Shown here one piece after another: positions 1-30,329 of a stretch of DNA of 35,247 nt. A program made the position numbers and the translations under genes. Positions within the stretch are counted from its first letter, which is position 1; each line of letters begins with the position of its first letter. Location of the stretch: the IMG/VR virus record IMGVR_UViG_2703719355_000021, one strand, 5' to 3'. A model generated the notes under the pieces. That model searched no databases and had not been told where the DNA came from. It was given only the letters and a program-made list of their open reading frames with translations. Origin of the DNA: a virus (lineage: Duplodnaviria; Heunggongvirae; Uroviricota; Caudoviricetes).

Positions 1-135
1 AAAGAGTTCCTTTCAAATTTAAATAAGCGTTAAGCCCACCACTCTTACTGGTGGGCCTCAATTTAAATTTGGGTGCCACTTCGACCATACCCTGGCAACC
101 GATTGACGGGGGATTGCTCCCCCGTCGCGGTTTCC

Positions 136-276
136 TTACTGCTTACACTGTAAGAACGCCGCAAACTCCGCTCCCCAGAAGCTCATCCGTATTTCACACA
201 GCGAACCGTGCAACATCCAGATGATGAGGATTGCCGTCACGCAGAACGTGATGGCCGTAAGCGATTTTTGCGACAT
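136..276 (-). CDS. hok: Hok/Gef-family type I toxin, 46 aa small membrane peptide
   Basis: Not in ORF track (<60 aa). Translation MSQKSLTAITFCVTAILIIWMLHGSLCEIRMSFWGAEFAAFLQCKQ: one TM helix followed by SLCEIR...EFAAF, matching the conserved Hok motif (R1 Hok ...KSLCEIRYRDGHREVAAF...). AAGGAG ribosome-binding site 8 nt upstream of the ATG. Confidence 0.7.
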   Translation of the reverse strand: MSQKSLTAITFCVTAILIIWMLHGSLCEIRMSFWGAEFAAFLQCKQ

Positions 277-406
277 AGCACTTGCTCCTTTTCCGGAGAG
301 GCGCTAACCTTTCACTTGTCAAGGTAATGCGGTTAGGGCCTCGGTTAAACAGAGATGTTTTCCGGGGCCTTTCCACATCTGGCCTTCGGGTATTCCCTCC
401 GACCAT
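194..406 (-). CDS. mok-like overlapping reading frame (70 codons) spanning the hok start
   Basis: Track ORF of 70 aa in a different frame, starting upstream of hok and ending inside it, the same geometry and size as mok in hok/sok loci. No sequence similarity asserted. Confidence 0.4.
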   Translation of the reverse strand: MVGGNTRRPDVERPRKTSLFNRGPNRITLTSERLAPLRKRSKCYVAKIAYGHHVLRDGNPHHLDVARFAV

Positions 407-466
407 CAGCCGAAAGGCACCCGCGCGTAATCTATCGCTTTTTTGTTACTCCGGCAATTCTGCCTG

Positions 467-727
467 TTAATTCTGAGGTAAAGGCAAGCTCATCTGATTG
501 TTTCCCCTGTGTGAAGCTGGCAGATCATGCCACGGGATATCTTCTGAAGAGTGAACGCCGGAGGCGTGTTTTGATGTGAATTTATGGAAAGCTTCCAGTG
601 TTGAGAAGCATACGCCGCATTCCAGATTGTTACACTGGTAATACTTTTGCCGCACGGTGTTTGAATCATTTTCCGGACGACTGGTGCGGATACGGGCAGA
701 TGCGCCACAAAGCGGACAACGGAACAT
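467..727 (-). CDS. ogr: Ogr/Delta-family zinc-finger late transcription activator
   Basis: N-terminus MFRCPLCGASARIRTSR...YYQCNNLECG matches P2 Ogr (MFHCPLCQHAAHARTSR...YHQCQNVNCS) with a C4 zinc finger; GGGAGG ribosome-binding site upstream. Confidence 0.85.
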   Translation of the reverse strand: MFRCPLCGASARIRTSRPENDSNTVRQKYYQCNNLECGVCFSTLEAFHKFTSKHASGVHSSEDIPWHDLPASHRGNNQMSLPLPQN

Positions 728-769
728 AGCGACCTCCCTTAACGTGGTGCTGTCGCTATTCTAAGTTGC

Positions 770-1879
770 TCACTCTGTTTCCGCTATCCATTCCGGGATT
801 TTTGCCTCAAGCTCAAGCTGCGTGGTAAAGCCGCTGTTATCAATGGTGTGCTCGGCTTTTGCAATAATCCAGTCCTGATTATCAATCTCGCTTTTAAATC
901 CTGTTACCGTGCCATGCATTTCGGGGTAGAGTTCTGCACGTCCACGTGCCAGCGTGATGGAAAATGATGCGGCTCCGCGTTGTAGCTGCTGCCACTTTGC
1001 CGCCGCTGCGCGTCTTGCTGCCTGCTCGTTCTGATAAGTCTTGCGTAACACAAACACATTGCCTTCCGCACCTTCCATATAATCACCTTCACGGCTGCTG
1101 CTTTTCTCCTTTTTGGGTTTTGGCGGTTTACGGCGTTTTACGCTGACCTTTTTCTTTTTCCCGTAATTAAGATCAAGCCAGTGGGCGCGTACCCCCGTAT
1201 ACGCCTCGCGGTCAGCAATACGGAACTGATGGCGATCGCCGCTGCTGCGTGTAATGGCGAACGAGGGCAACGGCTGGCCCTGTGCGTTCACGCCACCACC
1301 GGGCATGATGAATAACAGATTGCCGCTTTTTACCGTGGTGATTGCGCCCAGCATTTCCGCCATGCGCGTAAGGAAGGACATATCGCTTTCTTCGGTCTGG
1401 TCGGCGTGGTCGATTTCGATATCCATCAGCATTTCGCTGATTTGCGGTTTCAGACCATACCGATGAGCGATGGCGGATACCACACGCTCAACGGTCACAT
1501 CATGCCAGGACACCTCACGTTTAACGTTAAATTCATCCCGAAAATCTGCGCTTCTGGCTGAAACAGTCAGCCTGTCCGGCGGTCCTTCGTGAGCGATTTC
1601 ATCAACAATGTAAGTGCCTTTTTCTGTCAGCGGTTCTCCTTTCCAGCCAATGAGAACCGTCAGGCGCGCGCCCCGTGGCGGTAGCTGCAACTGACCATCC
1701 GCATCATCCAGCGTGATGGTGAGCTGGTCCGCTTCAAATCCCCGGTTGTCGGTCAGTGACAGACTCATCAGGCACTCTGCCACGCCGGACAGCGTTTCCC
1801 CCTCCGCGAGAATATCAAAATCCGGCATTTTCACGGGGTCTGTGCTCTGACTGAGCAATTGCATGGTGGTGTCGGTCAT
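770..1879 (-). CDS. D: tail protein gpD (late control gene D family)
   Basis: Clear similarity to P2 gpD (LTDNRGFEADQL..., SARSADFR, ESWHD, lysine-rich KKKKVSVKRRKPPKPKK segment, EGxYMxGExxNVF). Start moved to the internal ATG at 1879 (GGGAGGG ribosome-binding site); the track ORF extends to 2011. Confidence 0.9.
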   Translation of the reverse strand: MTDTTMQLLSQSTDPVKMPDFDILAEGETLSGVAECLMSLSLTDNRGFEADQLTITLDDADGQLQLPPRGARLTVLIGWKGEPLTEKGTYIVDEIAHEGPPDRLTVSARSADFRDEFNVKREVSWHDVTVERVVSAIAHRYGLKPQISEMLMDIEIDHADQTEESDMSFLTRMAEMLGAITTVKSGNLLFIMPGGGVNAQGQPLPSFAITRSSGDRHQFRIADREAYTGVRAHWLDLNYGKKKKVSVKRRKPPKPKKEKSSSREGDYMEGAEGNVFVLRKTYQNEQAARRAAAAKWQQLQRGAASFSITLARGRAELYPEMHGTVTGFKSEIDNQDWIIAKAEHTIDNSGFTTQLELEAKIPEWIAETE

Positions 1880-2036
1880 CTGTTCCCTCCCTGTGCGGCA
1901 TGGTCGCATGTGCGTGCGGAGTGGGTTACTGCTTTTTGTTGTCGCCGTGACGGGAGAATAGCGCAGGGGTGAGATTACGCGCGTGGTGGGTGATGATTGT
2001 TGCTGAATCATTTAACGGATACAAGGGGCTGAAGCT

Positions 2037-3221
2037 ATGAGTGAAACTCGTTTTCATGGTGCCCGTGTTACGGAAAATACCGACCTGGTAACAGCGATTA
2101 ACGATGTTGATTCCAGCGTTATCGGTATCGTGGCAACGGCGGATGATGCGGACGCGAAGCTGTTCCCGCTGAACAAGCCCACACTGCTGACCCGCGTCAA
2201 TGACGTGCTGGGGAAATGCGGGACAACGGGGACGCTTTATCGTGCGCTTAAGGCCATCGCAGACCAGGTGAGCACAAAGGTGATCGTCGTTCGCGTGGCT
2301 GAACACAAAGAAGAAGACGAAAAGACGCAGGATCAACTGGTTATCGGTGGTTCTGAGGATGACGGCAGCTATACGGGGATGTATGCGCTGCTTGTTGCAG
2401 AGCAGGATGAAAGCATCGGATACCGTCCGCGTATTCTGGCCGCGCCGGAGCTGGACACGGAGGCGGTGACAAAATCCCTGTGCGTGATTGCGGGTAAACT
2501 GCGCGCATTTGTGTATGCCTCATGTCACGGCTGTAACACGATGGCTGAAGCGATTACCTACCGCCAGAAATTCAACGAACGTGAAGTGATGCTCTTATGG
2601 CCGGACTTCATCGCCTACAACCCGAAAAGTGGCGAAAACGAAACGTTCCCCGCGCCTGCCTATGCGTGCGGCCTTCGTGCGTACATTGACCATGAACAGG
2701 GCTGGCACAAATCGCTGTCCAACGTTCCGGTTAAAAATGTGCTGGGGATGTCCAGGCATGTGTTCTGGTCGTTACAGGCCGAAGACAGTGATGCCAACAG
2801 CCTCAACAACAAAGAAATCACGACCATTATTCGTCGCAACGGGTTCCGCTTCTGGGGCAACCGCACACCGGAAACGAACGCCTACATCTTTGAGGTGTAT
2901 ACCCGAACCGCACAGGTGCTGGCTGATTCAATTGCGGAAGCGCAGTTTGAAACCATCGACAGTCCACTGACGCCTGCGAACGTGAAGGATGTTATCAGTG
3001 CCATCAGGGCAAAACTGGATTCACTGGTTACTGCCGGGAAACTGATTGGCGCGGAGTGCTGGTATGACGTGGTGGATAACAGCACCACGGATTTACGTCA
3101 GGGGCGTGTGCGTATTCGCTACAAATATACGCCCGTTCCGCCACTGGAAGACATGGAGCTTTACCAGACGTTTACTGATGAATACTTTGAACCCGCATTT
3201 GCGGTGCTGGGAGGTGCCTGA
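2037..3221 (+). CDS. FI: contractile tail sheath protein gpFI
   Basis: 394 aa; size and sequence consistent with P2 FI sheath; stop overlaps the FII start (ATGA-type junction). Confidence 0.93.
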   Translation: MSETRFHGARVTENTDLVTAINDVDSSVIGIVATADDADAKLFPLNKPTLLTRVNDVLGKCGTTGTLYRALKAIADQVSTKVIVVRVAEHKEEDEKTQDQLVIGGSEDDGSYTGMYALLVAEQDESIGYRPRILAAPELDTEAVTKSLCVIAGKLRAFVYASCHGCNTMAEAITYRQKFNEREVMLLWPDFIAYNPKSGENETFPAPAYACGLRAYIDHEQGWHKSLSNVPVKNVLGMSRHVFWSLQAEDSDANSLNNKEITTIIRRNGFRFWGNRTPETNAYIFEVYTRTAQVLADSIAEAQFETIDSPLTPANVKDVISAIRAKLDSLVTAGKLIGAECWYDVVDNSTTDLRQGRVRIRYKYTPVPPLEDMELYQTFTDEYFEPAFAVLGGA

Positions 3222-3733
3222 TGGCTGTGCCAAAACATCTTCGCTTTTTTACGCTGTTTGTGGATGGTGAAAACGAAGTGGGTAAGGTGACGTCCGTCAC
3301 TCTACCTAAGCTGACGCGCAAAACCGACAGCTACCGGGGTGGTGGCATGATGGGTGCGGTAAGTATTGATCTCGGTCTGGACGACTCCGCGCTTGATGCG
3401 AGCTTTGTCATGGGGGGCGCAGTTCGTGAGCTGTTCCTTAAGTATGGCGGCACGATTGACGGCACGCTGCTGCGTTTTGCGGGTGAATACTACACCGATG
3501 CAGAAAGCGACCTGTATGAAGTCGAAATGCGCGGACGTGTGACGGAAATTGATATGGGGGAAGCCAAACAGGGCGAAGCCACATCACACACTTACGCTAT
3601 TAAAAACACCTACTACAAGCTGAGTGTTAACGATCGCCCATTGTGGGAGATTGACCTGCTGAACTTCATTTACCGGAAGGACGGCAAGGACATTGTGCCC
3701 GATCGCATCCGTTCCGCGCTTGGGCTTGGCTGA
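3221..3733 (+). CDS. FII: tail tube protein gpFII
   Basis: 170 aa immediately after the sheath gene; P2 FII-like. Confidence 0.92.
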   Translation: MAVPKHLRFFTLFVDGENEVGKVTSVTLPKLTRKTDSYRGGGMMGAVSIDLGLDDSALDASFVMGGAVRELFLKYGGTIDGTLLRFAGEYYTDAESDLYEVEMRGRVTEIDMGEAKQGEATSHTYAIKNTYYKLSVNDRPLWEIDLLNFIYRKDGKDIVPDRIRSALGLG

Positions 3734-3788
3734 TAAGTAATATGCAGGCGGCGCGGTGCGTCGCCTCTGACTGAAAAGGAGACAACTG

Positions 3789-4163
3789 ATGAAAGACATC
3801 GATACTGAAACCCGGAATAACACCGTGGCGGATGATGTGACGGCAGGAGAGGATATGGCTGTCGAACGTGGTGTAAAACTTTCCCGGCCAATTGAGCGTG
3901 GTGCCGAAAAAATCACGTATGTGGAGATCACCGGGGCTATTGAGCAGGCGGGATCCCTGCGTGGTCTGTCGCTGTCTGATGTGCTGAATCTGAAAGCGGA
4001 TACCATGTTCACGCTGTTGCCTCGCGTGACCTCGCCACGACTGGATGAAGTGATGATTAAAAAAATGTCGTCACGCGATTTTATTCAGTTGTGCGCTGTG
4101 GCTGTAAATTTTATGAGCGAGCCAGACTCTGGCGCGAAGAGCGTGCAGGAGACGGCAGCGTAA
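3789..4163 (+). CDS. E: tail assembly chaperone gpE
   Basis: 124 aa ORF between the tube and tape measure genes, preceded by AAAGGAG; the conserved position of the frameshifting chaperone. Confidence 0.85.
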   Translation: MKDIDTETRNNTVADDVTAGEDMAVERGVKLSRPIERGAEKITYVEITGAIEQAGSLRGLSLSDVLNLKADTMFTLLPRVTSPRLDEVMIKKMSSRDFIQLCAVAVNFMSEPDSGAKSVQETAA

Positions 4164-4327
4164 TCACCCTGGTGTGCTTTGAGCACATCGAAGATCTGGT
4201 GGCGGATATTGCCGCCATTTTTAACTGGTCGCCCGCCGAAATCTTCATGATGACGCCCGGCGAAGTGGTTAGCTGGCGCGAGCGGGCGGCACTTCGCAGC
4301 GGGAATGCAGATAATGAAGACTCTTGA
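4091..4327 (+). CDS. E' extension reading frame (E+E' product by -1 programmed frameshift)
   Basis: The -1 frame relative to E is open from about 4061 to 4327 and overlaps the start of T. Candidate slippery heptamer A AAT TTT at about 4106-4112 in the E frame. Confidence 0.7.
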   Translation: MRCGCKFYERARLWREERAGDGSVITLVCFEHIEDLVADIAAIFNWSPAEIFMMTPGEVVSWRERAALRSGNADNEDS

Positions 4328-7121
4328 TATCCGGGTCGCTTTCAGCGCCGTTGACAGGCTGACCCGGCCTGCCGAAAACGCCCGCCGCCTGATGGGGCAG
4401 TTTGGTGACTCCATCCAGCGAACGCAGGGGGCGATCAAAAATCTCGAGCGTCAGGCGCGTTCATTTGAGCGCGCCCGCGACGCTGTCAGTAAAGCGGATG
4501 CGGGTATCGTGAAAGCACGACGCCAGCTTAACGCCCTTAATCAGTTACAACGCACGGGTACAGTGCTCAGCGAAAAGCAACAAAAGCTGATGCAGCAGTT
4601 AAGCACCCGGCTTGAACGCCTGAATGAATCGCGCACACGGGAAATTCAGAAAATGCGGGAGCTTGGCGGAGAGCTGAAACGCCACGGCATTTCCCTAACA
4701 GGCAGCGATAGCACCATCCAGCAGGCCATCAGACGCACCGAACAGTACAACAACCAGCTTGAACGCGAACGGCAGGCGCTTGCGCGTGTAACACGTGCGC
4801 GTGAGCGGTATTCGCGCGCGCAGGAAACCGCGGGAAAACTGAAAACAGGTGGTGCGCTGGCAATTGGTGCGGCAGCGGCGGGCGGCTATGCTGCCGGGCG
4901 TTTTTTGCAGCCTGCGATCGGGTTCGGGAAAGAGATGTCCCGCGTTCAGGCACTGACGCGAATCGACCAGAACAGCCCGCAGTTTAAGGCGCTGCGTGAG
5001 CAGGCGTTAAAACTTGGCTCTGAAACGCAGTTCACTGCAGGCGATGCCGCCAGTGGGCAGGCATTTCTTGCAATGGCTGGCTTCACTCCGCAGGCCATTC
5101 AGGCTGCGCTTCCCGGCGTACTGAGCATGGCAACGGCTGGCGGTATGGATCTCGGCGAAACGGCAGATATTGGCTCAAATATCCTGACGCAGTTCGGCCT
5201 TTCTGCTGACCAGATGGACCGGGTCGGTGACACACTCACCGCAGTGTTTACCCGTACCAACACTGACCTTCGCGCACTGGGCGAAACCATGAAATATGCA
5301 GGTCCGGTGGCGGGCAAGCTGGGAATATCGCTGGAGCAGGCCGCAGCGATGGCGGGCGTACTGGCGAATATGGGTATCAGGGGAAGTGATGCCGGGACGG
5401 CAATGCGTGCCAGCCTGGCTCGTCTGGCATCACCGCCAAAGGCGGCGGCAGAAGCTCTGAAAGAGCTGGGCGTGTCCGTCTCTGATGCGAACGGCAAAAT
5501 GCGCCCGATGGAGGATTTGCTGGCCGACCTTTATAAAGCCACCCGCAAATACGGGGAAGTTGACCGGGTATCGTTCTTTAAGGACATTGCCGGAGAAGAG
5601 GCTTTCACATCATTTATGGCTCTCGTTGATGCGGCGGGTGACGGCTCCCTGCCCAAACTGAGAAAAGAACTTGAGGGCGCACGCGGTGAGGCTGAACGCA
5701 CGGCAAAGGTTATGGCCAATAACCTTGATGGCGACCTGAAATCACTCGGCAGTGCATGGGAAGGGCTGCGTATCCGCATTGCAGATCTGATTGATGGTCC
5801 GCTGCGTTCTGTCACGCAGTGGCTCACGCAGGTGGTCTCAAAGGTGACGGCGCTGGCACAGGCTCATCCGGTACTGACGCGCCAGTTACTGATAGCAGGC
5901 GGTGCGCTGCTGGCAATGACTGCAACGGTTGGCTCGTTGTCGCTGGTTATTGGAGTGCTTCACGGGAAGCTGGCCACGTTGCGTCTTGGTTTTTCTCTCC
6001 TGACCGGATCAATGAATGCTGTCAGGGTTCTGCCTGCATTATGGGGAATGGTGACAGGCTCCATCTCGTTACTGGGGGGCGCTGTCGGGGCGCTGTTCAG
6101 TCCGGTTGGGTTGATTGCTGCAGCGTTTGTCGCTGCGGCGGTTCTCATCTGGAAATACTGGGAACCCATCAAGGCGTTTTATGCCGGGGTGTTCAGCGGG
6201 ATTATGGAAAGGCTGACCCCGTTGCGCGAAACCTTTGAACGGTTTGGTCCTGTTTTTGACGCAATCGGAAGCGGGATCAGCCAGGTGTTTAACTGGTTTA
6301 AATCGCTGCTGTCACCGATGGAGTCCAGCAAGGAAACGCTGGATAAATGTACCAGTGCTGGCGAGATATTCGGTAACGTTCTTGGCGGTGCGTTACAACT
6401 TGTTCTGACGCCTGCAAAAATGCTACTGGATACGCTGGCGTGGATACTTGAAAAACTTGGCGTCCTTCCGGATGAAGCGGAAAGGGCGCGCAAGAAAATC
6501 GAAGACGCACAGCGTGCGGCCATTCTTCAGGACAAGGTTGCCTTGCTTCAGGGGGACCTGGCGAAAATCAATCCGCCGAAGCCTGTGGAAAATGGCAATG
6601 GCACCGGAGGTGATAAACCCAAAGACAACAAACCGCTCACAGACAGCAATACCGGTACGCTACGCAGACTCAGCAAAATTGCTGATAACACAGGTAAGCT
6701 GGTTGATGAGACGAAAAAACGCATTGGCCCCGGCGATATTGTCTTTAAGAACCTGCCCCGCGCACTTGCTGTTCGTGGGGAGTGGCAGGAGCGGAAGATT
6801 GCGCAGATCAGTAAGCCTGCTTCCGCAATCAACATCACACCCGTGGTCCCGACTCCTCTGCCTCCGGCGCTGGTCCCTGTTGTTGCGGCCAGCTCCCGCC
6901 CGGTGGCGGAGGCCATACGATCGCCAGTGGCATCAGTTCCTGCAACTTCCCGTAACCGGGAGCCTGTTGTCTCCGGATTTGGCGGTGAAATTCATGTTCA
7001 TCTGCATAACGTTGTTACGCAGAATCCCCGCGAACTGGCGAAACTGGTCGGTGAAATGGTCAGGGCAGAATTGGAACGACGCGACCGTGCCGGACGTGGC
7101 AGTTTTTACGATAAAGATTGA
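4305..7121 (+). CDS. T: tail tape measure protein gpT
   Basis: 938 aa; coiled-coil N-terminal region, Gly/Ala-rich hydrophobic central segment; position after E/E'. Confidence 0.9.
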   Translation: MQIMKTLDIRVAFSAVDRLTRPAENARRLMGQFGDSIQRTQGAIKNLERQARSFERARDAVSKADAGIVKARRQLNALNQLQRTGTVLSEKQQKLMQQLSTRLERLNESRTREIQKMRELGGELKRHGISLTGSDSTIQQAIRRTEQYNNQLERERQALARVTRARERYSRAQETAGKLKTGGALAIGAAAAGGYAAGRFLQPAIGFGKEMSRVQALTRIDQNSPQFKALREQALKLGSETQFTAGDAASGQAFLAMAGFTPQAIQAALPGVLSMATAGGMDLGETADIGSNILTQFGLSADQMDRVGDTLTAVFTRTNTDLRALGETMKYAGPVAGKLGISLEQAAAMAGVLANMGIRGSDAGTAMRASLARLASPPKAAAEALKELGVSVSDANGKMRPMEDLLADLYKATRKYGEVDRVSFFKDIAGEEAFTSFMALVDAAGDGSLPKLRKELEGARGEAERTAKVMANNLDGDLKSLGSAWEGLRIRIADLIDGPLRSVTQWLTQVVSKVTALAQAHPVLTRQLLIAGGALLAMTATVGSLSLVIGVLHGKLATLRLGFSLLTGSMNAVRVLPALWGMVTGSISLLGGAVGALFSPVGLIAAAFVAAAVLIWKYWEPIKAFYAGVFSGIMERLTPLRETFERFGPVFDAIGSGISQVFNWFKSLLSPMESSKETLDKCTSAGEIFGNVLGGALQLVLTPAKMLLDTLAWILEKLGVLPDEAERARKKIEDAQRAAILQDKVALLQGDLAKINPPKPVENGNGTGGDKPKDNKPLTDSNTGTLRRLSKIADNTGKLVDETKKRIGPGDIVFKNLPRALAVRGEWQERKIAQISKPASAINITPVVPTPLPPALVPVVAASSRPVAEAIRSPVASVPATSRNREPVVSGFGGEIHVHLHNVVTQNPRELAKLVGEMVRAELERRDRAGRGSFYDKD

Positions 7122-7127
7122 GGAGTC

Positions 7128-7622
7128 ATGGCCATGATGATGATCTACGGCATGTTTGTTTTTGAGCTGCGTACATTGCCGCATCAACAGTTACAGCAAA
7201 ACAAAAGCTGGCGGCATGTGAAAAATGAACGCGTTAACCGTTCAGCAAGCTGGCAGTATATCGGTGCAGGTGATGATCGCATCGTTCTTTCTGGTGTGCT
7301 TTATCCTGAAATTACAGGTGGCGAAGTGTCGCTGTCGCTGCTGACCACGCAGGCGTATACAGGACGACCCTGGCCTTTGATTGATGGTGTCGGGCAGATT
7401 TACGGCATGTATGTGCTGACTGAAACGAATACGACCCGTTCCGAGTTTGATCGCTACGGTAAGGCGAAAAAGATAGAATTTTCACTGACTCTTGAACGCT
7501 GTGATGAGGATTTGCGGGAGCGCCTGCAATCCTCATCGTTCAGTGATATGCTGTCCGGCTTCAAAGATAAGGTCACATCATCCCTTAACAGCGCGGCCAG
7601 CTCCGTTAAAGGGCTGTTTTGA
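7128..7622 (+). CDS. U: tail protein gpU
   Basis: 164 aa directly after the tape measure gene; P2 gpU-like. Confidence 0.88.
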   Translation: MAMMMIYGMFVFELRTLPHQQLQQNKSWRHVKNERVNRSASWQYIGAGDDRIVLSGVLYPEITGGEVSLSLLTTQAYTGRPWPLIDGVGQIYGMYVLTETNTTRSEFDRYGKAKKIEFSLTLERCDEDLRERLQSSSFSDMLSGFKDKVTSSLNSAASSVKGLF

Positions 7623-7631
7623 TTAACGCAA

Positions 7632-7668
7632 AACCGCTAATGGTCAGATTAGCGGTTATTTTGTTTTC
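7632..7668. terminator. bidirectional intrinsic terminator between convergent U and invertase genes
   Basis: aaccgctaat-ggtcag-attagcggtt perfect 10 bp stem followed by attttgtttt; it sits between the U stop and the invertase stop. Confidence 0.6.
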
Positions 7669-8243
7669 TGACTCTTCTCTATTGTTCCGCTTGATTCTCC
7701 TGCGGGGTGGTAACGATAAATCGTCGATGTACCAATGCCGTAAATTATTGCCAGTTGTTTTCTGTCGTGACCGTTTTTAATCAGCCTTGCTATTTGCTCA
7801 TGCTGTTCTTTTGTCAGCTTCGGGCGACGTCCGCCTGTGCGCCCCCGTGCGCGCGCTGCTGCCAGTCCGGCCAGTGTACGTTCAACGATTAATTCACGTT
7901 CCATTTCAGCCAGGGCACCCATAACGTGGAAGAAAAAACGCCCCATTGGAGAAGATGTATCTATGCTGTCGGTCAGACTGCGAAAATTAATCCCTCGCTC
8001 CTGTAGTTCCCCGACGAGAGAAATCAGATGTTTCATGCTTCGCCCGAGGCGATCCAGTTTCCAGACAACCAGCGTGTCACCTTTTTGAAGGCGCTTTAAA
8101 GCGCGTTTTAATCCCGGTCGGTCTGTCTTTGTCCCGCTTAATTTATCTTCAAATATTTGTTCACATCCTGCACAAACAAGAGCGTTTCGTTGCAGGTCTG
8201 TATTCTGGTCATTTGTTGATACCCTTACATAGCCAATCAGCAC
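7656..8243 (-). CDS. Gin/Pin/Hin-family serine DNA invertase
   Basis: Near-identical in pattern to Mu Gin (LIGYVRVSTNDQNTDLQRNALVCAGCEQIFEDKLSGT...); catalytic Ser in VRVSTNDQ; C-terminal HTH. Start taken as GTG at 8243 (GGGAGA ribosome-binding site); the track begins at a TTG at 8261. Confidence 0.92.
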   Translation of the reverse strand: MLIGYVRVSTNDQNTDLQRNALVCAGCEQIFEDKLSGTKTDRPGLKRALKRLQKGDTLVVWKLDRLGRSMKHLISLVGELQERGINFRSLTDSIDTSSPMGRFFFHVMGALAEMERELIVERTLAGLAAARARGRTGGRRPKLTKEQHEQIARLIKNGHDRKQLAIIYGIGTSTIYRYHPAGESSGTIEKSQKTK

Positions 8244-8314
8244 GCTGAATCTCCCGTCCAAAAGCGTAAATCATGCCATGCAGGTCAGAAACGGCCATTA
8301 TCTAAAACCTCGGT

Positions 8315-9262
8315 TTGCAGGAAACGATAAATCAGGCTTCAGGCGCATTGCAGAAAAACCAGAACGGCGCAGATATTCCAGGAAAAGATACCTTCACAAA
8401 AAATATTGGTGCATGTCGCGCTTTTCACAGTTCTATTAGTACAGGTGCAGGGAACTGGACGACGGCACAATTGATTGAATGGCTGGATTCTCAAGGGGCA
8501 TTCAATCACCCATACTGGATGTGCAAATGTTCATGGTCATACGGCAATAATAAAATTATTACCGATACTGGCTGTGGAACTATTCATCTTGCAGGTTGCG
8601 TTATTGAGGTTATGGGTAATAAAGGTGCCATGACCATCCGTGTAACCACCCCGAGCACTTCCAGCGGTGGCGGAACTACTAATGCACAATTTACTTATAT
8701 AAACCATGGCGCAGATTACGCCCCAGGCTGGCGGCGCGACTACAGCACAAAAAACCAGCAACCTGCATTTGCTTTAGGGCAAACAGGAAGCAGGGTTGCA
8801 AATGATAAAGCTGTTGGCTGGAACTGGAATAGCGGCGTTTATGATGCAGATATCAGTGGCGCATCGACATTAATCCTCCACTTCAATATGAATGCGGGGA
8901 GTTGCCCTGCTGTACAGTTCCGCGTGAATTATAAGAACGGCGGTATCTTTTATCGTTCAGCGCGTGATGGTTATGGCTTTGAAGCTGACTGGTCAGAGTT
9001 TTACACCACAACCCGCAAACCCTCTGCGGGGGATGTTGGTGCATATACGCAGGCAGAATGTAACTCAAGGTTTATTACAGGTATTCGCCTTGGCGGTCTG
9101 TCATCTGTTCAGACATGGAATGGTCCCGGCTGGTCTGACAGGTCAGGTTATGTCGTTACGGGTTCAGTTAACGGAAACCGTGATGAATTAATTGATACAA
9201 CACAGGCAAGGCCAATTCAGTATTGCATTAATGGGACGTGGTATAACGCGGGGAGTATTTAA
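8315..9262 (+). CDS. alternative (currently unexpressed) tail-fibre C-terminal variable segment
   Basis: The ORF begins inside the crossover site with ...LQET, the same residues found in gene H at the other site ([11 protein letters not shown]). It has no start codon of its own, so it would be fused to the H constant region after inversion. Confidence 0.8.
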   Translation: MQETINQASGALQKNQNGADIPGKDTFTKNIGACRAFHSSISTGAGNWTTAQLIEWLDSQGAFNHPYWMCKCSWSYGNNKIITDTGCGTIHLAGCVIEVMGNKGAMTIRVTTPSTSSGGGTTNAQFTYINHGADYAPGWRRDYSTKNQQPAFALGQTGSRVANDKAVGWNWNSGVYDADISGASTLILHFNMNAGSCPAVQFRVNYKNGGIFYRSARDGYGFEADWSEFYTTTRKPSAGDVGAYTQAECNSRFITGIRLGGLSSVQTWNGPGWSDRSGYVVTGSVNGNRDELIDTTQARPIQYCINGTWYNAGSI

Positions 9263-9264
9263 CG

Positions 9265-9798
9265 ATGATGCACTTAAAAAACATTACTGCTGGCAACCCT
9301 AAAACAAAAGAGCAATACCAGCTAACAAAGCAATTTAACATCAAATGGCTTTATTCAGATGATGGAAAAAACTGGTATGAGGAACAAAAGAATTTCCAGC
9401 CAGACACTTTGAAAATGGTCTATGACCATAACGGCGTTATTATTTGTATTGAAAAGGATGTTTCAGCAATTAATCCAGAAGGCGCAAGCGTCGTTGAGGT
9501 TCCTGATATTACAGCAAATCGCCGGGCTGATATTTCGGGGAAATGGATGTTCAAAGATGGCGTAGTGATAAAGCGAACTTACACCGAGGAAGAGCAGAGG
9601 CAACAAGCGGAAAATGAAAAGCAAAGCCTGTTGCAACTTGTCAGGGATAAAACCCAGCTATGGGACTCACAGCTACGGCTGGGCATCATTTCCGACGAGA
9701 ATAAACAAAAATTAACCGAGTGGATGCTCTATGCGCAGAAAGTCGAATCCACAGACACCTCCAGCCTGCCAGTAACGTTTCCCGAACAACCTGAATGA
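9265..9798 (+). CDS. tail fibre assembly protein (alternative copy)
   Basis: 177 aa, N-terminus MMHLKNITAGNPKT...[13 protein letters not shown] paralogous to the minus-strand copy at 9827-10354. Confidence 0.85.
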   Translation: MMHLKNITAGNPKTKEQYQLTKQFNIKWLYSDDGKNWYEEQKNFQPDTLKMVYDHNGVIICIEKDVSAINPEGASVVEVPDITANRRADISGKWMFKDGVVIKRTYTEEEQRQQAENEKQSLLQLVRDKTQLWDSQLRLGIISDENKQKLTEWMLYAQKVESTDTSSLPVTFPEQPE

Positions 9799-9802
9799 GA
9801 CA

Positions 9803-9822
9803 AGGCCCGATATCGGGCCTTA
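9803..9822. terminator. bidirectional hairpin between the convergent fibre-assembly genes
   Basis: aaggcccgatatcgggcctt perfect palindrome followed by a T-run on the plus strand. Confidence 0.55.
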
Positions 9823-9826
9823 ATTT

Positions 9827-10354
9827 TTATTCAGGCTTTTGTGGCCATTCAGGATTTGCCGTATCCACACGGCTGACCAGAACACTGTAGCGTTCCCATG
9901 ACTCCAGTCGTGCGCGTTCCTCATCCGTCGCCATATTCAGCCTGACGGCGCGTTCCAGTGGCTGAATAACGCTTTCTGCTTCGGAAATTAACGCGGCCTT
10001 TTGTGATTCGGCCTGTTGTTGCAGTTCCTGTTCTGTATATTCCCTCTTTACTACTTTACCATCCAGAAACATCCATTTTCCGTTATTGTCTGCGCGACGA
10101 TTTGCCGTAATATCAGGAACTTCAACTATGCTTAGCCCTTCAGGATTAATAGTTGAAACGTCTTTACTGACAGCAACGATGATGTTGTTCTCATCGTAAG
10201 CAATTTTTATGGTGTCTGGCTGAAAATTCTTTTGTTCCTCATACCAGTTCTTGCCATCTTCACAAAAGAGCCATACCACGCCCGCTTTTTTAGTTAGCTG
10301 GTATTGTTCCGGTGTTTTCGGATTCCCGGCCTTAATATTTTTCAGGTGCATCAT
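9827..10354 (-). CDS. G: tail fibre assembly protein gpG (expressed orientation)
   Basis: [14 protein letters not shown]... paralogue of 9265-9798; start taken at the tandem Met 1 nt after the H stop. Confidence 0.85.
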
Positions 10355-10355
10355 C

Positions 10356-12401
10356 TTAAACACTCCCCACGTTGTACCATATTCCCCCAATCAATTTCTG
10401 AATTGGCCTTCTGGCAACAGTGTCGACAATATCATCCGCATTGCTGTTCATTGCGGCTGTTAAAACATAACCTGACGCATCGCCAAAGCCGTAGTCGCGC
10501 CATACGTTTTTAAGTTCAATGCTGCCAAGACGAATATCCCGAACGACATGATTATGCAGCCATGTGCTTAACCAGTTGTTTTCCCACACTGAACCATAAA
10601 TATCGCCACTAGACGCGACTTGCGCACCACTTCCCAGAGTGAAACCGCCATCCCTTTTAAAGATGAAGTCACCACCACCATCTGAACCGTTATTAATATG
10701 AACACCATCACCACCGTTATCTTTCCACAAAAACATACGAATACTTCCGTCTTCGTTGGCGAATGTAATGTGGTGGCGGTAATTACTTTTTAATCTAAAA
10801 TTGCTGCCATTAGATTCAATATCTTTATAAATATGTAATCCTAACTCATCAATATGTCCTATGCGCGAACCATTTGAAAAGATGCTAATAAAACCATCTC
10901 CATCTTGCCTAAATCCGGTGTCGTTATCTCCCAGAACAATGGAGTTTTCACCCAGTGCGTTATCAGTAGCACCAATAGCTAGACCTCCTTCAATTTTGGC
11001 CCCGTGGCTGACAGATATAGCACCTGTTCTCAGATTTATAGCGAATGGCCTTAATGGGCCGATATCACCGTTTTCGCCTTGTCCTTCAGCCGTCGGAATG
11101 AAATGAAGAAAATCTTCTGAACGACGGAAAATAAGACCGAAGGCATCATTGAAAATTCGCAGCGCATTCACCGTGCCAATTTTCAGTTCTCCGGTCATTT
11201 TATCACCGGAACGCTGAACGGCGTTACCAGCCTTGTTTACCGTTTCCTGCAAACCGAGGTATTCGATAACGGCGGCAACGGTCGATTTCGCAAGAATATC
11301 CCGCCCGACTTTTGTCAGAGTTGCCAAGCTGGCGACATCATTCCCCGTAAAATACGGAAACCTGTCTGCCGCAGTAGCAAGCCCGGCCAGCGCCGTCAGG
11401 GTGGCATCTTTCGGTTGCTTACCCGCAAGCGCGTTAGTCATGGTGGTCGCAAAATTCGGGTCGTTGCCCAACGCCGCAGCCAGCTCGTTTAGCGTATTCA
11501 GTGCGTCAGGCGACGAGTCCACGAGGGCAGCGATCGCAGCCATAACGAAAGCCGTGCTTGCGATTTGGGTATTATTCGTTCCCTGTCGCGCAGTTGGCGT
11601 TGTTGGCGTTCCGGTCAACGCAGGACTGTTTAAGGGCGCTTTCTTGTTCGTTTCATCCATTACCGCCTTAACCGCTTTCGATGTCGCGGCCAGTGTTTCA
11701 GACGTGCTGTTGGTTGCACTGCTGAGCTGGACTATCCCTTTTCGTGCCGTCGTGGCGTCCTGAGCGGTATATTTTCCGTTAGCCAGGTCATACGCGGCCT
11801 TAACCGCTTTCGGCGTTGCGGCCAGCGTTTCAGAATCGCTGTTAGTGGCGCTACTGAGTTGAACAAAGCCTTTTGCGGTCAGCGAGGCATCCGGGTGACG
11901 TCGTGACTGTTCATGCTCTTTCAGTTTGTCATCCACGTAATCCACTGTGGCCATCACCATGGTGTTATCCACGGTAAGCGCCACGCTGGCAGTGCTGGAT
12001 ACGGTCAGAATGGTGCGAAATGTTTGTGCACGTCCGGACCCCTCGGCAACGGTTGGCTTGTAACTTTCGGCAGTATTGCCCACCGCGATTAAATCGCCGT
12101 GCTCATCAAATACACCAATTTCCCGGATCCAGAATCCGCCCGTTTCAGGAGGAATAACCAGCTCCGCAATAATGCGGTTCTGATGTGTTGCGTCCAGGAT
12201 GACGCGATTAACAGTGTGTCGCCACACCTCATGCACCAGACGGGTCTGCTTACTGTCTGGTGTGGGCAACGTGCCGCCACCGTCGCCCACGGCCATATGA
12301 GTCAGGCGGACAGGCTTACCATCTGGCGCGGCTGCCTGAGCTAATTTTTTTGCACCCGTATCGGTGATAACGGTTTTAAATTTTCGTGTTGTGGTACTCA
12401 T
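10356..12401 (-). CDS. H: tail fibre protein gpH (constant N-terminal part plus currently joined variable C-terminal part)
   Basis: 681 aa; N-terminus [24 protein letters not shown]..., internal repeats (ATNSxSETLAATxKAVKA twice); the crossover site lies in-frame at about 11244-11269. Confidence 0.9.
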
Positions 12402-12403
12402 GC

Positions 12404-12934
12404 TTAATCGTCCGGATAAATGGTAATAACTTCACCGTCATAAGTTGCCGCCGCTGCGAAAATACCCCCCGGAATTTCCTGAATGATATTCAGCCCTGTC
12501 ATGTGGCGGCTGACCGGACGGGCATCAGCAATCAACCGCTCCATTTCCAGATACATTTCCTCCGTCACGCCACTGTCCAGTGTGCCGACTTCAACGGTAA
12601 ATGTTCCCGGTTCTCCGCCGAACTCCCACCATTCAGACACGCGAATGAGGTATCCCAGCGGCTCAATGGCCCTGCGCAGTGCGCTGATGGTCCCTTTGTG
12701 TCGGTGTATCAGCCATGCATCACGAATAACCTGTCGCTTTGTCTCTTCCGGCCAGTTGCGATCCCAGCGGTCAACGGAAAATGCCCAGGCGAGATAGGGC
12801 AGCAGATGCACCGGACAGGTATCCGGCGACCACAGTGTGTTGAGGTCTACCGGAATGTCTGTAATGCGTGTTCCGACGGCTTCGGCACAACGCATGAAAT
12901 TGCTGGCTGATGGTGGTAACAACGAATTACTCAT
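12404..12934 (-). CDS. I: baseplate protein gpI
   Basis: Aligns with P2 gpI from MSNSLLPPSASN... (LLPYLAWAFSVDRWD, EMERLIADARP motifs). Start moved to the internal Met; the track ORF starts at 12967. Confidence 0.88.
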   Translation of the reverse strand: MSNSLLPPSASNFMRCAEAVGTRITDIPVDLNTLWSPDTCPVHLLPYLAWAFSVDRWDRNWPEETKRQVIRDAWLIHRHKGTISALRRAIEPLGYLIRVSEWWEFGGEPGTFTVEVGTLDSGVTEEMYLEMERLIADARPVSRHMTGLNIIQEIPGGIFAAAATYDGEVITIYPDD

Positions 12935-20658: not shown

Positions 20659-20812
20659 AGTTTTTGCCCCTCTGACTGGTTCTTCAGTCATGATGGCAAA
20701 GCGTAACAGGCTGATACAAAGGGCTTTTGTTGTAAGAAAACGGCCAGAACAGGGGGTTAAGGAGAACGGTTTCGCGCGCGGGTAATCTTCCTGTAATTAC
20801 TCAGGGGGAGCA

Positions 20813-26605: not shown

Positions 26606-26720
26606 CGTTTACGGGATTCTGAAATCCCGTTTTTGCCTGTTTTGTGCGCGCTTCACATATCGCTGCGCGTTTTTTGCTCATTTACGGGATTTGTGAATCC
26701 CGTTTCTGTCTGTTTTTTGT
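26606..26720. repeat. two ~40 bp direct repeats, each with a palindrome (acgggatt-N5-aatcccgt), upstream of parM: candidate parC centromere/operator
   Basis: cgtttacgggattctgaaatcccgtttttgcctgtttt (about 26606) and catttacgggatttgtgaatcccgtttctgtctgtttt (about 26679), 73 bp apart; the second lies within the last codons of gene A. Confidence 0.5.
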
Positions 26721-30150: not shown

Positions 30151-30329
30151 GGTGTGGCCCCTTGTGTAGTAAGTTGTGAAAACTCACCATCCAGAGCTGC
30201 GAAACTGTGGGTGGCGAGACGTACGAGGTTCGCAGTACCGGCTACACAAGAACCCGGCCCGACCGAAGTCGGCCCCGTACGCCCCGCCATAATTCTGACG
30301 CGAAAAAAACGTGGCAATACAGTACGCAC

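Follow-up and report, generated by a model that had tools for sequence, protein, structure and literature searches.

In P2, 186 and RE2010 (the last of Fels-2 type), the tail genes FI-FII-E-T-U-D are co-directional and are followed by ogr or B; U abuts or overlaps D, which has no promoter of its own, and the whole set lies between the tail-fibre genes and ogr/att. In these three genomes the activator box of pF and the FI ATG are about 80 nt apart, and a -10-like hexamer spans +43.5 to +48.5 from the centre of that box. The same co-directional order occurs in more distant phages, namely phiE202, phiE12-2, AP3, vB_BA and a Vibrio phage. Other late operons of P2 and 186 are divergent and share one activator site. 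P2 has a single annotated site (3057-3087) for pP, which starts at 3016, and pO, which starts at 3127, each start being 55.5 nt from the centre of the box (3071.5), on opposite sides of it; 186 has one annotated B site for p12 and pV, and in Smp131 PP' and PO' were reported on one 18-bp site (PMC3931495).

A different order of the tail genes is annotated in other members of the family; four or more named genera of the Peduoviridae have it as their normal order, and about a quarter of the complete E. coli genomes carry it. In the Xuanwuvirus phages P88 and Shae_phiSM, D on the minus strand is followed by FI-U on the plus strand, an invertase gene on the minus strand, an invertible fibre segment and H-I-J on the minus strand. 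The Senquatrovirus phages SEN4 and SEN5 and the Klebsiella phages of the genera Reginaelenavirus and Reipivirus also have FI-U inverted and divergent from D, with ogr after D. In SEN4, Kp4877-2 and Kp4848-1 the FI-U genes are opposite to D, ogr and V-H, which is not the case in P2, 186 and RE2010; no invertase was detected in the former three. The portions of the literature available to us on P88, SEN4, phiSM, Serratia PP4, the Burkholderia P2-like phages and the Xenorhabdus tailocin yielded no explicit mention of an inversion.

The DNA analysed here, hereafter the window, is a viral stretch of 35,247 nucleotides. Its first 12.5 kb are 94-95% identical over 88-92% to P88, P884B11 and Shae_phiSM (94.3% over 92% of positions 1-12500 for P88), and by this measure the window belongs to Xuanwuvirus, as a P88-like member; the nucleotide comparison covered positions 1-12500, and the remainder was compared with other genera as protein synteny. 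The genes of the tail region are as follows.

467-727, minus strand: ogr homologue, 86 aa (Pfam Ogr_Delta, E 5.2e-14; 38% identity to P2 Ogr)
770-1879, minus strand: gene D, tail/baseplate hub protein, 369 aa (Pfam Phage_GPD; 48% identity to P2 D)
2037-3221, plus strand: FI, tail sheath, 394 aa (Pfam Phage_sheath_1, Gp18_domIII_N and Phage_sheath_1C; 46% identity to P2 FI)
3221-3733, plus strand: FII, tail tube, 170 aa (Pfam Phage_tube, E 7.5e-47)
3789-4163, plus strand: E homologue, tail assembly chaperone (35% identity to P2 E by tblastn)
4091-4327, plus strand: open reading frame in the -1 frame overlapping the end of E (from the ORF list; P88 has a small separate tail protein annotated here)
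4305-7121, plus strand: T, tape measure protein, 938 aa (Pfam PhageMin_Tail, E 7.5e-59)
7128-7622, plus strand: U, tail protein, 164 aa (Pfam Phage_P2_GpU, E 5.5e-39)

The open reading frames, together with the Pfam matches, agree with the preliminary description in placing FI-FII-E-T-U (2037-7622, 5586 bp) on the plus strand and in assigning D, ogr, the invertase and the H-to-O block, with its genes H, I, J, W, V, N and O, to the minus strand; the plus strand also carries P and Q. The annotations of P88, Shae_phiSM and SEN4 give the same strand layout. The sheath, tube, tape measure, gpU and gpD matches all exceed the curated Pfam cut-offs, and the proteins are 33-48% identical to those of P2, which identifies a contractile tail module of the P2 family (Peduoviridae); the single F operon of canonical P2, with FI through D in one direction, is not found in the window. 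The E homologue had no match in the Pfam search. The reading frame at 4091-4327 is probably the E' part of an E+E' frameshift product, as annotated in P2, and a search for a slippery site for the -1 frameshift identified none. The start of D at 1879 is that of the Shae_phiSM annotation and is preceded by the Shine-Dalgarno sequence GGGAGGG. The ogr homologue, directly downstream of D, has a C4 zinc finger with the spacing CX2CX24CX4C; one sigma-70 match, at 907-878 on the minus strand and so within D near its 3' end, is a candidate promoter for ogr. Rfam and tRNA scans of positions 1-8300 found nothing.

Because P2, 186 and RE2010 carry the same genes co-directionally at the same position, the earlier proposal that FI-U is inverted in place relative to P2 is upheld. 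The same description, however, took the order as unusual and raised misassembly, allowing that the layout would be unremarkable if it were standard for an established P2-like subgroup, and the synteny comparison showed precisely this. The layout recurs in P88, Shae_phiSM, SEN4, two Klebsiella genera and 1306 E. coli genomes, as well as in every locus of the clade defined by D in a survey of 80 Enterobacterales loci, drawn from one-genome-per-species contigs. All 58 surveyed loci whose D is at least 60% identical have a divergent FI about 140-245 bp upstream of D (846 bp in one locus, L043), while the 21 informative loci with D at most 53% identical all have U directly upstream on the same strand. 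In SEN4 and the Klebsiella phages D is 62-72% and FI 56-70% identical. The FI-U inversion is thus shown to be fixed and common to a clade of Enterobacterales Peduoviridae that includes Xuanwuvirus, Reginaelenavirus, Reipivirus and Senquatrovirus, and since the inverted order is standard for this clade, it is ordinary in the window. That the co-directional order is ancestral and the inverted one derived rests on parsimony, from the gene order of outgroups and the identity bands, unrooted.

The far end of the block adjoins an invertase gene and an invertible segment.

7632-7657, no strand: hairpin common to the convergent U and invertase genes (the terminator scan lists a plus-strand terminator)
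7656-8261, minus strand: Gin/Cin/Hin-type serine DNA invertase (Pfam Resolvase and HTH_7)
8294-8338, no strand: left inverted repeat of the invertible tail-fibre segment, with the gix-like crossover core AAACCTCGGTTT at 8305
11229-11273, no strand: right inverted repeat of the invertible tail-fibre segment, inside H, with a gix-like core at 11251

The hairpin gives substance to the earlier statement that U converges on the invertase across a shared terminator. Its folding energy is -15.1 kcal/mol when read from the plus strand and -12.5 kcal/mol when read from the minus strand, and its 3' arm includes the invertase stop codon (7656-7658). For U the U-tract is good, and for the invertase it is weaker; the hairpin is a terminator for both genes, less strong on the invertase side. 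Shortly after U, at about 7624-7628, similarity is lost in about half of the E. coli matches, marking a mosaic boundary. The invertase has about 88-90% nucleotide identity to the gin/G region of Mu and D108, and together with the 8294-11273 segment it is 86-90% identical to the cassettes of Mu, D108, P1 and P7 (G/Gin in Mu, C/Cin in P1). Like the Mu G and P1 C segments, the fibre segment of the window is flanked by inverted crossover sites; unlike them, the FI-U block has no such sites and occurs in the databases in a single orientation. The invertase serves the tail-fibre segment and not the FI-U block.

These observations bear on how the block came to its present orientation. An assembly that misoriented FI-U has nothing found in its support and was raised solely because the order differs from that of P2; on database comparison it is vanishingly improbable, as P88 and Shae_phiSM, which were induced and independently sequenced, have the same junctions, and among complete E. 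coli genomes 1306 of 5426 carry the D/FI junction without a break and 621 the U/invertase junction, while a synthetic un-inverted D|U junction was found in none of the 1417 genomes that match its halves. The proximity of the invertase gene (7656-8261), of a family that inverts the adjacent tail-fibre segment, suggests another possibility, that this enzyme flips FI-U as well and that the window has captured one of two states. This is scarcely credible: a search for gix cores found them only at 8305 and 11251, with none at the ends of the block, and a search for inverted repeats found none linking 1880-2036 with 7623-7655. Furthermore, the other orientation is absent from the same 1417 E. coli genomes, SEN4 and 51 of the 58 clade loci are inverted with no invertase adjacent (7 of the 58 have one beside U), and a flip of the block would uncouple D from any promoter.

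Replacement of the module, whereby the block would have been acquired in the opposite orientation from a different contractile-tail phage instead of being inverted in place, has more in its favour. P2-family genomes are mosaic, about half of the E. coli matches show a sharp break in similarity right after the U stop codon, and the N-terminal residues of D, from 1 to 17-18, fail to align with D of the co-directional phages. We nevertheless hold this origin to be improbable, since FI-U is 33-46% identical to P2, about as far as the head genes at 38-47% (head and baseplate together, 38-61%), and the block occupies the very place that it has in P2, with the tail-fibre region on one side and D on the other. 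Moreover, its closest relatives, Kp4877-2 and Kp4848-1, are also the closest for P, Q, O and D, as expected if the block was inherited together with the rest of the genome. The reading that we favour, with a probability of about 0.8, is that FI-U is an ancient and fixed inversion with respect to the P2/186/Fels-2 order, clade-wide and neither an assembly error nor a product of the invertase, and that the D/FI spacer, in the inferred part of this reading, is a bidirectional late promoter.

The inversion of FI-U relative to D has a consequence for transcription: D is out of reach of pF and needs a promoter of its own, a point on which the preliminary description was right. The D/FI spacer (1880-2036, 157 bp) contains the following elements, listed with a related one from the O/P spacer that serves as an internal reference.

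1900-1905, minus strand: -10-like hexamer GACCAT, putative pD (predicted start near 1893)
1940-1957, no strand: variant Ogr-type dyad TGTCGCCGTGACGGGAGA, TGT-N12-AGA (from the one-mismatch search; centre at 1948.5)
1992-1997, plus strand: -10-like hexamer GATGAT, putative pF (predicted start near 2004)
20731-20748, no strand: second variant dyad TGTAAGAAAACGGCCAGA in the O/P spacer, of the same variant type as the D/FI box

The earlier report of no Ogr-type dyad in this spacer stands for the perfect TGT-N12-ACA, which is absent, but not for the variant at 1940-1957, which has one mismatch to the textbook pattern. The perfect pattern is too strict a test, as even the activator sites annotated in P2 and 186 depart from it (TGT-N12-CCA); in the whole window it has six matches, which is no more than expected by chance, and none of them is in a late intergenic region. 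Nor is the implication that the spacer is without Ogr-type control supported, as the variant occupies the place where relatives such as SEN4 and Kp4877-2 carry a perfect TGT-N12-ACA. The one-mismatch search is uninformative alone (145 matches in the window against 156 expected) and informative only when combined with position and comparative data. The longer pattern TTGTTGT-N12-MSA occurs only twice in the whole window, at the D/FI box and at 20727, and the dyad at the latter site would serve the divergent pO and pP, with O probably starting at its second ATG (20658). A loosened scan for the box combined with a hexamer was not specific across the window (20 matches against 15 +/- 4 in shuffles), and the composite scan found no separate promoter for the V operon. 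The genes R, S, V, W, J, I and H follow one another closely and may be read from pO.

Comparison across the clade is more telling. The Xuanwuvirus relatives have a D/FI spacer nearly identical to that of the window, including the box and both hexamers; the differences are indels in the tail-fibre region and a small number of substitutions, which around the box fall in N12 and just past the box and leave the half-sites and both hexamers unchanged. The spacer of SEN4 is also 157 bp, and the spacers of SEN4 and the Klebsiella phages each contain a dyad. TGT-N12-[ACG][CG]A is present in 53 of the 58 inverted loci (five have no box), in most of them with about 65-82 nt between it and the D ATG and about 75-88 nt between it and the FI ATG. 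The 52 non-redundant anchored spacers have a mean pairwise identity of 48% and 39 distinct N12 sequences, and at the homologous position the box ends in ACA in 34 and in AGA in 18. Within this variation, all 52 have A at +44.5 and +47.5 and T at +48.5 from the dyad centre, and the mirror positions -48.5, -47.5 and -44.5 are kept in 47, 40 and 49, respectively.

The right-hand element, NAnnAT ending at +48.5, occurs in 52/52 inverted loci, and it is also found in all 15 co-directional pF regions, P2 and 186 included. Its mirror image at -43.5 to -48.5, the left hexamer, is present in 44 of the 52 inverted loci, with 8 lacking it by regular expression, but in only 2 of the 15 co-directional pF regions, the others having no mirror -10 to the left of the box (Fisher p = 6e-7, a value obtained with patterns refined after inspection of the data and one that overstates independence because the compared loci are phylogenetically related).

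We infer from these similarities that the D/FI spacer is a bidirectional late promoter, with pD leftward and pF rightward, built like pP/pO of P2. The inversion split D and ogr from the F operon and left the promoter region of pF back to back with D, as follows from the gene order. One Ogr-binding dyad (1940-1957) would then be flanked by mirror hexamers, GATGAT for pF and GACCAT for pD, which end 48.5 nt on either side of the centre at 1948.5, and transcription would begin about 55 nt from that centre in each direction, near 2004 (plus) and 1893 (minus), a distance that derives from predicted starts only. The spacer shares this mirror geometry with pP/pO of P2 and p12/pV of 186, in each of which a single site serves two divergent late operons; those promoters are experimentally mapped and lie between the packaging and head operons, whereas the D/FI promoter is predicted and would set the tail operon against D-ogr. 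The two dyads, O/P and D/FI, would give rise to four divergent late promoters, and late transcription from pD may continue past a hairpin at 728-769 into ogr. No published description of an Ogr-dependent bidirectional D/FI promoter was found in the literature searched.

A rival for the left half of this arrangement is that D is read from a promoter unrelated to the Ogr mirror promoter, of sigma-70 type or under another regulator, the left element (CATGATTTCACGCGCGCG-like) having some other role. The left hexamer is indeed less conserved than the right one (44/52 against 52/52), the predicted leader of pD is very short (about 14 nt, with the start 2-3 nt upstream of the Shine-Dalgarno sequence), and a run of alternating CG, itself conserved, separates the box from the left hexamer. 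Yet the mirror register of the hexamers (+/-43.5 to 48.5) fits the spacing of the P2 pP/pO starts (+/-55.5), the left element is rare in co-directional pF regions, and a promoter scan gave no sigma-70 match in the spacer, so that this rival appears rather unlikely. It seems reasonably probable, from sequence comparison and by analogy with P2, that the inversion made a second bidirectional Ogr-dependent promoter, in which the single D/FI dyad would drive transcription of the tail operon to the right and of a new D-ogr operon to the left, so that two dyads would provide four divergent late promoters in this clade; ogr would then be in a positive-feedback loop through pD, and the symmetry of the dyad would explain why the inversion was tolerated and fixed.

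The finding matters little as a discovery, and the modest point that it makes is evolutionary. The gene order of P2 does not hold as a reference for every P2-like prophage, and therefore a divergent D/FI pair is no flag for misassembly or for a broken prophage. The FI-U inversion is a testable example of operon rewiring after an inversion: 5.6 kb of an essential late region were inverted and accommodated, apparently because a dyad activator site serves both directions.

The tail region of the window holds the following features, called from the ORF map and Pfam scans:

467-727, minus strand: ogr, Ogr_Delta zinc finger (Pfam), motif CX2CX24CX4C
770-1879, minus strand: D, Phage_GPD (Pfam)
1880-2036: D/FI spacer, 157 bp, between the divergent D and FI
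2037-3221, plus strand: FI, sheath
3221-3733, plus strand: FII, tube
3789-4163, plus strand: E, without a Pfam match, 35% identical to P2 E
4305-7121, plus strand: T, tape measure
7128-7622, plus strand: U, gpU
7656-8261, minus strand: serine invertase

The ORF map and protein comparison place H, I, J, W, V, N and O on the minus strand and P and Q on the plus strand. The gene calls and strands of the preliminary description, with the FI-FII-E-T-U block (FI-U) opposite to D and ogr, are borne out by the ORF map and Pfam scans, and so is the convergence of U and the invertase on one shared hairpin (7632-7657), which folds at -15.1 and -12.5 kcal/mol on its two strands and whose 3' arm includes the invertase stop codon.

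Other elements were seen on the minus strand. The 42-bp D-ogr spacer contains a hairpin (ATAGCGAC...GTCGCTAT) inside a larger fold (715-785, minus strand; -22.4 kcal/mol, z = -2.6), which may modulate ogr translation off a D-ogr transcript because it takes in the ogr ribosome-binding site and start codon. The stretch homologous to 194-406 (minus strand) is annotated in P88 as a MokW/hok-gef-type host-killing gene; the 70-aa ORF found there in the window has no Pfam match, and Rfam reported no hok/sok RNA. Two Rfam matches above the gathering score neighbour each other in the early/replication part of this P2-family element. The replication-initiator (A-like) ORF carries an extra region relative to P2 and 186, since its alignment with P2 A covers only about 73% of its length:

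26653-29475, minus strand: A-like ORF, 940 aa, 31% identity to P2 A where aligned
30207-30294, minus strand: C4 antisense RNA, 83 bits
30330-30404, minus strand: isrK Hfq-binding sRNA, 64 bits

Over its first 12.5 kb, the window shares 94-95% identity with Escherichia phage P88, Xuanwuvirus P884B11 and Citrobacter phage Shae_phiSM. An assembly artefact, raised in the preliminary description, is rejected, because P88 and Shae_phiSM were deposited with annotations of the same strand layout, a 1.4-kb probe across the D/FI junction matches without a break in 1306 out of 5426 complete E. coli genomes, and a synthetic un-inverted junction, in which the 5' end of D meets the reverse-complemented 3' end of U, occurs in none of the 1417 genomes matching its two halves. 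Switching of the FI-U block by the adjacent invertase is likewise rejected: a search for an inverted repeat linking the two block ends found none, and the only Gin-type crossover cores (AAACCNNGGTTT), at 8305 and 11251, bound a Mu-G-like tail-fibre segment. A probe across the U/invertase junction matches 621 genomes contiguously, and most other genomes that it matches lose similarity just past the U stop codon, a mosaic boundary. This boundary (7623-7630) is sharp: about half of the complete E. coli genomes with a match lose similarity at about 7624-7628 and carry a different region there instead of this invertase. Several E. coli O157:H7 chromosomes (NE122, Z1768, TB21-1; H171-H173) have the D/FI-probe match broken into two pieces with an IS30-family transposase annotated beneath, and these copies are likely defective.

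A synteny comparison by tblastn, with the proteins of the window as queries against phage genomes, detected the inverted FI-U block in three further genera, and no invertase was detected in these three phages or listed in the SEN4 annotation:

Salmonella phage SEN4, Senquatrovirus: inverted FI-U block (tblastn and annotation)
Klebsiella phage Kp4877-2, Reginaelenavirus: inverted FI-U block (tblastn)
Klebsiella phage Kp4848-1, Reipivirus: inverted FI-U block (tblastn)

In P2, 186 and RE2010 (Felsduovirus), unlike the window, FI-U is co-directional with D. A survey with a D-protein profile on one-genome-per-species contigs gave 80 loci, which were classified by tblastn. Where D is at least 60% identical to that of the window, FI diverges from it in every locus (58 of 58), whereas U lies immediately upstream of D on the same strand in 21 of 21 informative loci with D at most 53% identical. 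The D/FI gap of the inverted loci is 140-245 bp (57/58; 846 bp in L043), and in nearly all of them U is on the opposite strand about 5.2-5.7 kb off; an invertase adjoins U in only seven. These 58 loci span about 25 genera, including Salmonella, Serratia, Klebsiella, Enterobacter, Pantoea, Erwinia, Pectobacterium, Xenorhabdus, Photorhabdus, Providencia, Morganella, Hafnia and Yersinia. One 226-kb contig labelled with a Gram-positive genus (L010, NZ_JBQPOM010000071.1, "Vagococcus sp. WN89Y") carries an enterobacterial-type prophage with D 95-98% identical to the window's, and this assembly is probably contaminated or mislabelled.

The inverted order is thus fixed across the surveyed clade and at least four ICTV genera, so that it is the usual gene order in an established subgroup of P2-like phages, the case in which the preliminary description considered it unremarkable. 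The gene order is real but ordinary and already known, because it is public in the annotated reference genomes of those genera and common in E. coli. The literature on P88, SEN4 and phiSM, as far as accessible, makes no remark on it; rearranged tail operons of P2-like phages were noted earlier, for example in Smp131 (PMC3931495). By parsimony the inverted order would be derived, since more distant phages (Burkholderia phiE202, phiE12-2, AP3 and vB_BA, and a Vibrio phage) are co-directional. Between import of a foreign module and inversion in place in a common ancestor, the comparison favours the latter, because FI-U and head proteins are similarly distant from P2 (33-46% and 38-47% identity) and the nearest relatives of the window's FI-U proteins are the same Klebsiella phages that are nearest for P, Q, O and D.

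The D/FI spacer literally lacks a perfect TGT-N12-ACA, as had been described; however, this promoter test was too strict, as the annotated activator sites of P2 (pO/pP, pF) and 186 (p12/pV, pJ) read TGT-N12-CCA. A variant of this Ogr-type box, TGT-N12-AGA (TGTCGCCGTGACGGGAGA, 1940-1957, with CTTTTTGTTGT immediately before), is present in the spacer, and the same variant stands in the O/P spacer (TGTAAGAAAACGGCCAGA, 20731-20748, after CTTTTGTTGT). Across the 35 kb, TTGTTGT-N12-MSA has no match other than these two, a descriptive count, as the pattern was derived from both. SEN4 and Kp4877-2 have a perfect TGT-N12-ACA in this spacer, and TGT-N12-[ACG][CG]A is found in 53 of the 58 inverted loci, mostly at a distance of 65-82 nt from the ATG of D and 75-88 nt from that of FI. 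Most relatives keep an alternating CG run (CGCGCGCG-like) between the dyad and the -10-like hexamer on the D side; the window has one at 1909-1918 and similar runs at 1975-1986 (FI side of the box) and at 20765-20775 (O/P spacer).

When 52 non-redundant spacers were anchored on the box (mean pairwise identity 48%, 39 different N12 sequences), a right hexamer NAnnAT ending 48.5 nt from the dyad centre had invariant A, A and T, and the corresponding positions of a left mirror hexamer, at the same distance, were kept in 47, 40 and 49 spacers. As a control, pF regions of co-directional loci (P2, 186 and RE2010 among them) show the right hexamer in 15/15 and the left one in only 2/15, versus 44/52 in the inverted clade (Fisher p = 6e-7, to be read with caution among related loci). 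Furthermore, substitutions of this region within Xuanwuvirus fall in N12 and just past the box, leaving half-sites and both hexamers unchanged. The predicted elements are:

1992-1997, plus strand: pF -10, GATGAT, predicted start about 2004
1905-1900, minus strand: pD -10, GACCAT, predicted start about 1893

The box and mirror hexamers in relatives, together with the P2 pO/pP and 186 p12/pV precedent, lead us to infer a second bidirectional late promoter, pD/pF, in the D/FI spacer. In P2 a single activator site centred at 3071.5 serves pO and pP, whose mapped starts (3016 and 3127) lie 55.5 nt to either side; 186 has one B site annotated for both p12 and pV, and PP' and PO' of Smp131 were reported on one common 18-bp site (PMC3931495). 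Against pD/pF stand the predicted D leader of 14 nt, the one mismatch in the window's box, the left hexamer missing from a minority of relatives and a loosened genome-wide scan for such promoters that was not specific. Of the two candidate starts of the O (scaffold) ORF, the first ATG (20691) has no Shine-Dalgarno sequence and lies over the putative pO -10 (CATCAT); the second (20658) follows GAGGGG and yields MANEKK..., matching the P2 gpO N-terminus, and is probably the start.

From sequence comparison, pD/pF would join the kind known from P2 pP/pO and 186 p12/pV, and would be the sole modestly new element here. If true, such a bidirectional promoter would plausibly account for the tolerance of the inversion.
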